NCBI GenBank assembly: GCA_048885535.1
Contig: JBHLLO010000034.1
Span: forward strand, 1-30,659
DNA from: Candidatus Hermodarchaeota archaeon
Lineage (GTDB): Archaea > Asgardarchaeota > Lokiarchaeia > Sigyniarchaeales > SOKP01
Length of the DNA: 30,659 nucleotides
Direction of reading: 5' to 3'
Shown: in pieces, positions 23,035 to 24,502 of the stretch
How positions within the stretch are numbered: position 1 is the stretch's first letter
How the letters are laid out: each line of letters begins with the position of its first letter
Program-made: the position numbers and the translations under genes
The notes under the pieces: generated by a model
Database searches by the model: none
What the model saw: only the letters and a program-made list of their open reading frames with translations
Told to the model about the DNA's origin: nothing

Positions 23035-23166
23035 CAGATTCTCTTCTCTGTTTAAAATTTTAGATTTATTAAGACTATATACTGTGAATACTCATATATC
23101 TATTGTTTTATTAAATTATAAATAAATTGCCCTAAATGTGTTCTATTTTTATTCTATAATTTTAAA

Positions 23167-23181
23167 TTTTAAAACCTACAG
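23167..23181 (+). promoter_or_regulatory. Putative TATA-box promoter of zinc-ribbon ORF1
   Basis: TTTTAAAACCTACAG, near-identical to TTTTAAACCTCAG upstream of the paralog. Confidence 0.45.
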
Positions 23182-23206
23182 AAAATTCTCCTTACATGAT
23201 AGTATA

Positions 23207-23320
23207 ATGCTAGTTTGTCAAACTTGTGGAACAATAATTTCTGGAAGGAAGGAAGGACATTATTATTGTAATAATTGCGGTAAAGTTACATATCACCTTT
23301 CAGTTAGGTTTAAGTGATAA
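23207..23320 (+). CDS. Zinc-ribbon microprotein 1, candidate selenoprotein (36 aa if TGA 23315-23317 is a stop; 37 aa ending in Sec if recoded, then TAA)
   Basis: MLVCQTCGTIISGRKEGHYYCNNCGKVTYHLSVRFK-TGA-TAA. CxxC-x13-CxxC, paralogous to 23525-23680. Not in ORF track. Confidence 0.8.
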
Positions 23321-23347
23321 TATGCAAAGAAAATAATGTCAAAGATT

Positions 23348-23414
23348 AAAGTTAGAATGAAACTTATATTGAAATTTTAGATATAAGCGGACAACCCTGT
23401 GAGGGTGACTTTTT
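23348..23414 (+). ncRNA. SECIS-like kink-turn RNA element in the 3' UTR of microprotein 1
   Basis: AUGA at 23357-23360; stem CUUAUAUU(23363-70)/GAUAUAAG(23380-87); apical AAA at 23372-74; GA at 23390-91 exactly in register for tandem sheared G.A pairs. Flanking helices are possible. Confidence 0.6.
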
Positions 23415-23494
23415 GTATTTATTCATAATTTCCAGATTTCGATTATTAGGAATTAATTATCTCTCTAAAATATTTTTCTGTTATAAAAAGAAGA

Positions 23495-23507
23495 TTTTAA
23501 ACCTCAG
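23495..23507 (+). promoter_or_regulatory. Putative TATA-box promoter of zinc-ribbon ORF2 (likely leaderless mRNA)
   Basis: TTTTAAACCTCAG, preceded by purine-rich AAAAGAAGA (BRE-like) and starting 30 nt before ATG 23525. Confidence 0.5.
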
Positions 23508-23524
23508 GTCTATAATTACTTATT

Positions 23525-23680
23525 ATGAAAACAGTAGTTTGTAAGGAATGTGGTTTTTCAATTGAGAATAAAGAACCTGGAATTTATTATTGCGAAAATT
23601 GCTTGAAAAAAAAGAAATTTTTTAAAGTCCAAGCGTTTTGTGGAGCAAAGCCAGATAATAAACTTTATAAACATAATTAA
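23525..23680 (+). CDS. Zinc-ribbon microprotein 2 (51 aa; Cys paralog)
   Basis: MKTVVCKECGFSIENKEPGIYYCENCLKKKKFFKVQAFCGAKPDNKLYKHN*. CxxC-x13-CxxC plus a fifth Cys. Not in ORF track. Confidence 0.82.
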   Translation: MKTVVCKECGFSIENKEPGIYYCENCLKKKKFFKVQAFCGAKPDNKLYKHN

Positions 23681-23791
23681 ATATCACTGAAAATACAATA
23701 TTGGACTTATTTTTTATACTCTCAATATCTATAAAATATAGTCTAAAACATTTAGATTAATATTTTAAGAAAATAATTCTTTTTTACTCCT

Positions 23792-24502
23792 ATGACTGAA
23801 AATTTATACATGGATGACTCATATCTAAGAAATTGGGAAGCGAGTGTCATAAGTGTAGAAGAAGATAAGTACATAATTCTTGATAGAACAGCGTTTTATC
23901 CTAAGGGAGGTGGTCAACCTTGGGATGAGGGTTTCTTAACCCTTAAAAGTGGAAAACGATTTAGAGTCGTATATGTAGGTAAATTTTCTGGAGAAATTAG
24001 CCACGAAGTCGACAAATCAGGGCTAAAAGCGGGAGATAAGGTGCAATGTGAACTTGATTGGGAAAGAAGATATACTTTTATGCGATACCATACTGCTTCA
24101 CATCTGCTAAGCAATATACTTTACAAAAGGACCAACGCAAAAATTACTGGAAATCAAATAGAAATAGAGAAAACAAGAATGGACTTTTCGATGCATGATT
24201 ATTCTCCCGAAAAATTACGAAAATTTGTAGATGAAACGAATCAGATTATAAAACAAGATTTGCCAGTTACGATTGATTATATGTCAAAAGAAGAGGTTTT
24301 GAATAAACCTGAGCTTGCAAGATTAGCTATGGGACTACCTGAAAAAGTTCAAAAATATCGAATTGTTAGAATCGGAGATATTGATGAACAAGTTGATGGT
24401 GGAACTCATATCAAGAGCTTAAAGGAAATTGGTGAAATAGAAGTTATTAAGACTGTAAATAAAGGAAAAGACAACCGAAGAATTTATTTTATCCTTAAAT
24501 AA
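23792..24502 (+). CDS. alaXM: Alanyl-tRNA editing protein AlaX-M
   Basis: LDRTAFYPKGGGQPWDEG, DWERRY..MRYHTASHLL and DGGTHI..L.EIG; 236 aa. Confidence 0.93.
   Translation: MTENLYMDDSYLRNWEASVISVEEDKYIILDRTAFYPKGGGQPWDEGFLTLKSGKRFRVVYVGKFSGEISHEVDKSGLKAGDKVQCELDWERRYTFMRYHTASHLLSNILYKRTNAKITGNQIEIEKTRMDFSMHDYSPEKLRKFVDETNQIIKQDLPVTIDYMSKEEVLNKPELARLAMGLPEKVQKYRIVRIGDIDEQVDGGTHIKSLKEIGEIEVIKTVNKGKDNRRIYFILK

Follow-up and report, generated by a model that had tools for sequence, protein, structure and literature searches.

The stretch of DNA analysed here (the window) is a contig of 30,659 nt (JBHLLO010000034.1, assembly GCA_048885535.1) from a Candidatus Hermodarchaeota archaeon, whose genome of 3.09 Mb comprises 112 contigs with 30% G+C; the genome is labelled G000 below, and the window is its contig C34. 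On the forward strand, an unannotated small open reading frame (ORF) runs into a UGA codon at 23315-23317 that is followed directly by UAA, and behind it lies an RNA element at 23348-23412. The original prediction had described this element as a selenocysteine insertion sequence (SECIS) of eukaryotic type built on a kink turn (K-turn), with a plain K-turn bound by L7Ae as the fallback. The AUGA of the element follows the UGA by 42 nt, which places it in the 3' untranslated region (UTR) of a gene that has a UGA in frame, on what is probably a short, monocistronic mRNA. The small ORF is the only plus-strand frame upstream of the element, and the transcript offers no other in-frame UGA for a SECIS to serve. 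The features of the locus, with Sec standing for selenocysteine, are as follows.

23207..23317, plus strand: small ORF MLVCQTCGTIISGRKEGHYYCNNCGKVTYHLSVRFK-U, unannotated, 36 sense codons and a terminal UGA, ATG at 23207
23315..23317, plus strand: UGA, putative Sec codon and last sense codon; TGA in 45 of 50 loci, TGT in 5 of 50
23318..23320, plus strand: UAA directly behind the putative Sec codon, the true terminator on our reading of the ORF
23348..23353, plus strand: 5' strand of helix I, AAAGUU, pairing with 23407-23412 in the minimum free energy (MFE) fold
23355..23360, plus strand: bulged strand of the K-turn/SECIS core, comprising G (position -1b), the AAU bulge and the partners in the G.A and A.G pairs; AUGA is 23357-23360
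23361..23369, plus strand: 5' strand of helix II, 9 positions
23370..23380, plus strand: apical loop UGAAAUUUUAG, 11 nt, with conserved AAA and final G
23381..23389, plus strand: 3' strand of helix II, pairing with 23361-23369
23390..23392, plus strand: non-bulged strand of the core, GA plus C23392, which pairs with G23355
23394..23406, plus strand: helix III, hairpin ACCC-UGUGA-GGGU, 23394-23397 pairing with 23403-23406, directly 3' of the core
23407..23412, plus strand: 3' strand of helix I, GACUUU, running into the U-tract 23410-23414

Comparison with relatives ties the UGA to the element. At E <= 0.01, a profile of the small protein matches 131 of the 400 phylum genomes searched and 97 of the 134 genomes of the same archaeal family, and among the matches listed, those over all 36 profile positions are all in that family. 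We examined 50 orthologous loci, the window's own included; they are kin, so counts over them overstate their independence. All 50 contain the full 37 codons, counted from the Met that precedes the first Cys by three residues, and align without gaps; in a few genes, another ATG in the same frame lies upstream of this one. The encoded proteins are as little as 32% identical to the window copy, and still M1, the four Cys residues, G17 and K36 are invariant. Position 37 is always either the Sec codon or Cys: codon 37 is TGA in 45 loci (K-TGA-TAA/TAG) and TGT in the five others (K-TGT-TAA/TAG; L062, L073, L074, L075 and L077). In every gene listed or tallied, the codon that comes next is TAA or TAG, never TGA. 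Among the stops of long ORFs in the host genome (n=1954), TGA accounts for 14.7%, and TGA followed by TAA or TAG for 0.6%.

The distribution of the SECIS follows that of the TGA, as all 45 TGA forms carry one and none of the five Cys forms does. A strict SECIS pattern was found behind 39 of the 44 TGA-ending genes in the scan; four more have the pattern with a one-base bulge, and in one it lies about 143 nt downstream. The UGA of this gene thus aligns with Cys in homologues, and the SECIS accompanies only the UGA, as is expected of a selenoprotein. The genomes with Cys forms hold four to seven SECIS matches elsewhere, which argues that these organisms have not lost Sec, and that codon change and SECIS loss went hand in hand in the zinc-ribbon gene specifically. 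One orthologue, L072 (G277:C10:34755-35468, minus strand), has a second in-frame TGA at the position of the invariant fourth zinc-ligand Cys (CPL-U), and its conserved frame then goes on to K-TGA-TAA. Such an mRNA makes sense only if UGA is decoded; the internal UGA would place Sec among the ligands of a zinc or redox site, unless it is a sequencing error.

Together with the form of the element, these data make it very probable, in our judgement, that the element is a genuine SECIS through which Sec becomes the C-terminal residue, and that the small protein belongs to a selenoprotein family outside the seven reported for Asgard archaea. When a ribosome reaches the UGA at 23315-23317, the SECIS would recruit EFSec carrying Sec-tRNA(Sec), either directly or through a K-turn-binding protein. 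Sec would be inserted as residue 37, and the UAA would then terminate translation. The product would be a zinc-ribbon protein of 37 residues in which Sec ends a short, flexible, basic tail (RFK-U).

The predicted protein consists of a four-Cys zinc ribbon and a C-terminal tail of five residues. AlphaFold2, run on an alignment of 48 sequences, returns a confident zinc ribbon with a mean predicted local distance difference test score of 87.4 and strands at residues 2-4, 17-21 and 26-32. Residues 33-37 lie outside the sheet of the model, which would place the Sec on the short basic tail. Pfam assigns the protein to no family at its cut-off and returns only sub-threshold matches to generic zinc ribbons, and no PDB entry reached E <= 0.001 in Foldseek, where the top-ranking weak matches were chains of 48-50 residues from bacterial ribosome entries and a small RNA-polymerase subunit. 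A search of 1.84 billion proteins returned 15 at E <= 0.001. The full-length family members end at Lys; public gene predictions stop the zinc-ribbon proteins at Lys36, one residue early. The gene neighbours, a leucine-rich repeat (LRR) protein, an unknown protein of 321 residues, an ORF2 paralogue and AlaX, offer no functional lead. A redox or selenium-carrying role of the tail is a speculative guess on our part. A bolder idea, unsupported by the gene context, is that the Sec-tailed mini-protein could be a DsrC-like carrier of redox equivalents or selenium for the many complexes of the Hdr/Mvh type in these archaea.

Reading of the sequence confirmed the K-turn core, the upper stem-loop and the AAA just as the original prediction had drawn them. 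The core has the G23355-C23392 pair, the AAU bulge and the tandem G23359.A23391 and A23360.G23390 pairs of a K-turn at the sequence level, and the predicted stem C23363-U23370/G23380-G23387 is present, with GAAAUUUUA as the loop within it and AAA at 23372-23374. The same bases fit the lokiSECIS, in which AUGA precedes a stem of 9 bp, the apical loop of 11 nt begins A-rich and closes with a conserved G that usually comes after A, and GA follows the stem (Mariotti et al. 2016, PMC4989117); forms of this kind, which rarely have AA for the GA, correspond to the type I "eSECIS-like" elements of Huang et al. 2024 (PMC11227280). In the window, AUGA at 23357-23360 directly precedes the stem, GA at 23390-23391 directly follows it, and between them lie 9 + 11 + 9 positions with a loop that ends in AG. 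Seven of the nine helix II positions are Watson-Crick pairs in the window copy, the two at the base being A.G and A.C. The span from AA to GA is as short as originally described. It is not odd, however, because such a span is the norm for the SECIS of this lineage.

Conservation was evaluated in alignment A5, which holds 43 orthologous elements and underlies all counts of covariation and pairing given here. Its columns G25, T28, G29 and A30 are invariant and A26 and A27 nearly so; the first position of AUGA is A in all but one orthologue (GUGA in L046). Behind the stem, the first position is G in at least 90% of the orthologues and the second is A in 43 of 43. The AAA (A42-A44) and the loop-final G50 are likewise invariant (43/43), as are A61 and C62.

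A simple pattern scan is unselective, since the 9/11 geometry has 28 matches in the 3.09-Mb genome. The same geometry is also found behind a VhuU-type [NiFe]-hydrogenase gene (C57), HdrA-VhuD pairs (C18, C28) and a VhuD gene with two TGAs (C50). We scored the element with covariance models built from SECIS of known selenoprotein genes, none of which contains a member from the zinc-ribbon gene family. Model R1 comprises three host SECIS, from behind VhuU, HdrA-VhuD and VhuD. Model R2 comprises 22 known-gene SECIS from nine genomes, that is, the three of R1 and 19 from eight other genomes, each of the 19 located behind a recognisable SelD, VhuU, VhuD or HdrA frame with TGA codons. A search for FlpD (PF02662) in the genus gave mostly Cys-type genes and was of no use for harvesting SECIS. 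Behind one SelD gene lies a lokiSECIS resembling type I, with 58.1 bits on R1 (L109:1301-1358, in G202:C2); according to Huang et al., the SECIS of selD are mostly of type II (PMC11227280).

Searched against the whole genome, R1 gives the studied element 33.1 bits (E 8.7e-4, rank 5). Its training sequences score 71-75 bits, a second HdrA-VhuD element 43.7 and the element of a small ORF on contig C15 30.9, and the first clearly background match is at 21.4 bits (E 0.57). With filters off, no match within the window outscores the element (E 8.6e-6), and the runner-up is at 17.0 bits. R2 raises the score to 41.1 bits, with a genome-wide E of 1.8e-6 and rank 6 in the genome; training sequences score 65-75 bits, and clear background stays at or below about 21 bits, bar one SECIS-looking match at 27.4 bits. 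Scores so far above background place the element within the SECIS of its lineage. A background-level score on such a model had been named in advance as the outcome that would speak against a SECIS, and neither model returned one. Applied to the orthologous loci at E <= 1, R2 recovers 43 of the 45 that end in TGA and none of the five Cys forms; the two that it misses, L038 and L066, were caught by the pattern.

These results bear on the idea of a plain K-turn in the 3' UTR, which would bind L7Ae or another K-turn protein in the service of mRNA stability, localisation or translational control, the UGA being an ordinary stop. At the sequence level the core is a textbook K-turn, as this idea requires. 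The element, however, agrees with the SECIS of the lineage in every part of their signature, from the length of the stem and the AAA and closing AG of the 11-nt loop to the GAC and helix III, and it reaches 41 bits on a model of known-gene SECIS; a K-turn without a role in Sec insertion would also leave unexplained the correspondence of TGA and TGT and the loss of the SECIS in Cys forms. We consider a plain K-turn very unlikely, and the fallback is not needed. The geometry of the lokiSECIS, the model scores and the alignment of the UGA with Cys in orthologues that are free of the element all support the eukaryote-type SECIS on a K-turn that had been proposed, and a functional SECIS of the eukaryote-like type of Lokiarchaeia (Promethearchaeota) appears to be the best explanation for 23348-23412.

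The part of the proposed structure that had to be revised is its lower stem of four pairs. One of them, G23355-C23392, is the -1b/-1n pair of the K-turn and is G-C in 43 of 43 orthologues. The other three (23351-23395, 23352-23394 and 23353-23393) are unpaired in 38, 26 and 26 of the 43, respectively; they are possible in the window sequence but are not conserved. Overall, 47.7% of the cells of this stem are paired, as compared with 46.2% after shuffling, and 104 of 500 shuffles do as well. In its place, we find a three-way junction, in which an outer helix I encloses both the K-turn hairpin and the helix III hairpin. The junction is the MFE fold of the 72 nt from 23345 to 23416 (-11.4 kcal/mol); the structure drawn originally evaluates at -1.6 kcal/mol.

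Two of the three helices are supported by covariation. In helix II, eight of nine pairs have changed on both sides in a compensatory manner, with 90.4% of the cells paired; in helix III, this is so for three of four pairs, with 85.5% paired. None of 500 shuffles reaches the observed covariation score, and slid registers drop to 33-44% paired. The register of helix I varies by subfamily, and this helix was therefore tested by duplex energy. Across the 43 orthologues, cognate flanks have a mean of -9.2 kcal/mol, as compared with -4.3 for non-cognate flanks from dissimilar sequences and -4.3 for shuffled ones (Mann-Whitney p = 4e-12, a significance that is overstated because the sequences are kin). 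Clearly different sequences fill the role of helix I, among them UACCCU/AGGGUA, GAUGGAUCCU/AAGGAUUCAUC and AAGGUGGAUU/AAUUCCACCUU.

All three helices can also be seen in the VhuD, VhuU, HdrA and SelD SECIS, both in the host and in other genomes, which argues that the junction is a property of the SECIS of this lineage and not of the zinc-ribbon gene. In all known-gene SECIS inspected in this archaeal family (L109-L128 and G000 contigs C18, C28, C50 and C57), the order of parts is an outer helix, G-RAU-GA, helix II, GA/AA-CUA, a hairpin of 4-5 bp and the return strand of the outer helix. The text consulted in the two reports on Asgard SECIS, figures and supplements aside, makes no mention of a three-way junction (PMC4989117, PMC11227280), and literature searches on SECIS in Lokiarchaeota or Asgard archaea and on the k-junction found a three-way-junction SECIS in no title or abstract.

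Changes to G-U in relatives place the RNA on the plus strand. This is relevant to another alternative, that the structure is an independent small RNA, for instance one of the C/D-box type, or the terminator hairpin of the small ORF. A terminator would agree with the run of U behind the structure, and the U-tract at 23410-23414 does probably end the transcript. No RNA sequencing run was listed as containing the stretch. For a small RNA there is a weak SNORD116-like match (17.6 bits against a gathering score of 35 bits, E 4.4). That match, however, is on the opposite strand to the one indicated by the G-U substitutions; along with mir-208, also on the opposite strand, it is all that Rfam returns for 23050-23800 at E <= 10, and both are at chance level. 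At gathering scores, no Rfam family, SECIS_1 included, matches anywhere in the window. Neither a small RNA nor a terminator would be expected to keep a fixed place behind the UGA in 45 loci or to score as the element does on SECIS models, and we regard this alternative as extremely unlikely.

Several observations nonetheless weigh against Sec insertion at this UGA, the main objection being distance. The 42 nt between UGA and AUGA, or 33-55 nt in most orthologues, are unusually short. The shortest other spacings between a Sec UGA and its SECIS that we noticed in the host genome are about 60 and 84 nt, and for fruA of Methanococcus the shortest natural spacing is 88 nt, the lower limit being untested there (PMC9622424). 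Mariotti et al. argued from a minimal-distance requirement that UGAs near a lokiSECIS are plain stops, and they described a stop inside the AUGA for VhuU.1 (PMC4989117). In the host genome, VhuU and one VhuD likewise end at the UGA that is part of the AUGA in their respective SECIS, at the following sites.

L025:3357-3391 (= G000:C57:8856-8890), strand not given: VhuU SECIS with the stop in its AUGA, from the pattern scan
L023:3041-3075 (= G000:C18:39040-39074), strand not given: VhuD SECIS with the stop in its AUGA, from the pattern scan

Other points on the same side are the kinship of the 50 loci; the A.G and A.C positions at the base of helix II; the weakness of helix I in the window copy, where it has 6 bp and is AU-rich; and the fold of the 86 nt from 23340 to 23425, which has a z-score of -1.14 and lacks the SECIS hairpin in its MFE structure. 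Finally, a tRNA-Sec above the Rfam cut-off was detected in two of five genomes with the TGA form and in one of five with the Cys form, so that this marker fails to separate the two forms.

The short spacing, the proposed minimal distance and the stops within AUGA would all fit a SECIS that is real in form behind a UGA that is too near to be decoded. In that case, the UGA at 23315 would mostly or always be a stop, and the element would be either a relic or a means of adjusting termination or the fate of the mRNA, and not one of inserting Sec. We hold this to be unlikely. Covarying helices would not persist in 45 orthologues, with protein identities down to 32%, if the element were a relic, nor would a relic vanish exactly where TGT replaces TGA. 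Cys at the same position of five orthologues shows that residue 37 exists, the invariant second stop, which is never UGA, would be pointless unless the first UGA were read, and L072 needs readthrough of its internal UGA on the same mRNA. What the analysis shows directly is the conservation of sequence and structure, the model scores, the correspondence of Sec or Cys with presence or absence of the SECIS, and the Sec machinery of the genome; Sec insertion at a spacing of 42 nt, the binding partner, the transcript ends and any function of the protein are inferred. If the UGA is indeed read at 42 nt, as the comparative evidence says, then the minimal spacing is bounded from above, and the locus is a natural experiment on how near to a UGA a SECIS in the 3' UTR may sit, with spacings of 33-55 nt.

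The host encodes Sec machinery: a tRNA-Sec, a SepSecS, an EFSec-like GTPase, and a selD that itself contains one in-frame TGA (186 bits). Three of these genes are clustered at G000:C73:8104-14710.

G000:C73:8104-9261, minus strand: SepSecS, 385 bits, adjoining tRNA-Sec
G000:C73:9476-9568, complement strand: tRNA-Sec, RNA gene detected in the host genome
G000:C73:13823-14710, plus strand: EFSec-like GTPase, 230 bits, under the cut-off of the bacterial selB model

Within the window, ORF2 (23525-23680, plus strand) encodes a zinc-ribbon paralogue of 51 residues with the conserved motif ...KF.K.EAFCGAKP... and adjoins the Sec gene in most relatives, the gene order LRR protein / ORF1 / ORF2 / AlaX being conserved. 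ORF2 itself has neither a TGA nor a SECIS. An alignment of the UGA with a Cys of ORF2 was considered and dropped, as the alignment is ambiguous and some ORF2-type paralogues have Asp at that site; true Cys orthologues were found in its place.

A scan of the host genome that started from SECIS points to at least three more candidate selenoprotein ORFs that are as yet unassigned. One is a small membrane ORF at L022:3266-3500 (= G000:C15:16265-16499), MSTTSF...NGGG-U-PCVIIVHYTGKLIPNLIWV, whose TGA is about 60 nt before a lokiSECIS; the lokiSECIS scores 41.5 bits on R2, and the stop of the ORF is the UGA of its AUGA. A tandem copy near G000:C15:17343-17377 has apparently decayed, with CGA in place of TGA, and a similar ORF with a SECIS (..GNGGPSULC..) is present at L118 in another genus. 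ORFs of this type are a candidate for a further selenoprotein family. On the same contig, at G000:C15:29011-29065 on the plus strand, a SECIS-like three-way junction (27.4 bits on R2, E 0.0047), with AUGC instead of AUGA, follows a small membrane ORF that has a TGA in frame (...NAYSA-U-GQPMTFF...). The third is an ORF of about 170 codons at L026:863-1418 on the minus strand (= G000:C58:18162-18717), with two adjacent TGAs (..DVGC-U-U-EKV..) and no Pfam family. Behind it is an AUGA-9-11-9-GA element that has a 3' hairpin and is unlisted by the genome searches with R1 and R2.

The seven Asgard selenoprotein families come from a search that took known selenoprotein families as its seeds (Huang et al. 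2024, PMC11227280), and a 2026 review repeats this inventory. More generally, the two surveys of Asgard selenoproteomes sought relatives of known selenoprotein families or Cys-containing homologues (PMC4989117, PMC11227280). Literature searches returned no paper on an Asgard zinc-ribbon selenoprotein and no title or abstract on such a family, although the supplements of the surveys might list candidates. We think it likely that all of the following hold jointly: that the gene represents an unrecognised, Asgard-specific family of 37-residue zinc ribbons with Sec as the last residue; that its SECIS acts 33-55 nt from the UGA, against the idea of a minimal spacing that has been proposed for lokiSECIS and is known for eukaryotic SECIS; that a K-turn three-way junction, rather than a two-helix structure, characterises SECIS in this lineage; and that, with at least three further candidate ORFs, homology-based surveys systematically under-count the Asgard selenoproteome.

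Asgard SECIS are a proposed link between archaeal and eukaryotic Sec decoding. The locus adds to the selenoproteins of this group a family that was found from the SECIS side and that is kept by 97 of 134 searched genomes of its archaeal family. The two further conserved helices in the SECIS of the lineage are worth including in structural work or in work on binding proteins, and models such as R2 could serve to recount small selenoproteins in Asgard genomes.

Among known systems, the protein can be set beside selenoproteins that have Sec in a C-terminal tail, such as thioredoxin reductase (GCUG), SelK, SelS and SelO. As in these, the (putative) Sec would sit where a flexible C-terminal tail ends. 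It differs in that Sec would be the last residue, in that the body of the protein is a zinc ribbon of 32 residues without sequence similarity to them, and in that no adjacent Cys is available for a selenenylsulfide motif.

For the RNA, one point of reference is the k-junction, which is attributed to Wang et al. in 2014 and is reportedly a K-turn elaborated into a three-way junction. In that topology, the non-bulged strand enters helix III after the G.A pairs and then returns to helix I, as it does here. In the element, however, helix I and the G.A pairs are 5 nt apart instead of 3, and the likeness is one of secondary structure and covariation only.

With the SECIS of Euryarchaeota (Methanococcales and Methanopyrus), the element has in common that it is an archaeal 3' UTR element that directs, in our case putatively, the insertion of Sec, and the SECIS of euryarchaeal VhuD also carry AUGA...GA (PMC4989117). 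Euryarchaeal SECIS have a GAA/A bulge between a GC-rich lower stem and an upper stem of 3 GC pairs (PMC4989117). The studied element, in contrast, has no GAA/A bulge on reading of its sequence, no dedicated model having been run, and it lacks the GC-rich lower stem of 10 bp and the 3-bp GC upper stem.

The resemblance to the eukaryotic SECIS of type I (Rfam SECIS_1, bound by SBP2) extends to the AUGA...GA quartet, the loop adenines, the site in the 3' UTR and the presumed action on a distant UGA. The upper stem of the element is, however, much shorter, no Rfam SECIS matches it even at E <= 10, and its lower part is a junction with an extra hairpin instead of helix I and an internal loop. SBP2 has been reported as absent from Asgard genomes (PMC4989117).

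The closest counterpart is the lokiSECIS, with which the element shares AUGA, nine stem positions, an 11-nt loop, GA, a 3' UTR site near the end of the gene, and the model scores. The window copy departs from it in the A.G and A.C at the core-side positions of the stem and in a loop that starts with UG before the AAA. The element also differs in its gene, which is outside the seven Asgard families and in which the UGA, 42 nt upstream, would be the last sense codon. A zinc-ribbon family with an apparent terminal Sec is not among the seven families of Asgard archaea, and the kind of element that appears to serve it is a known one.

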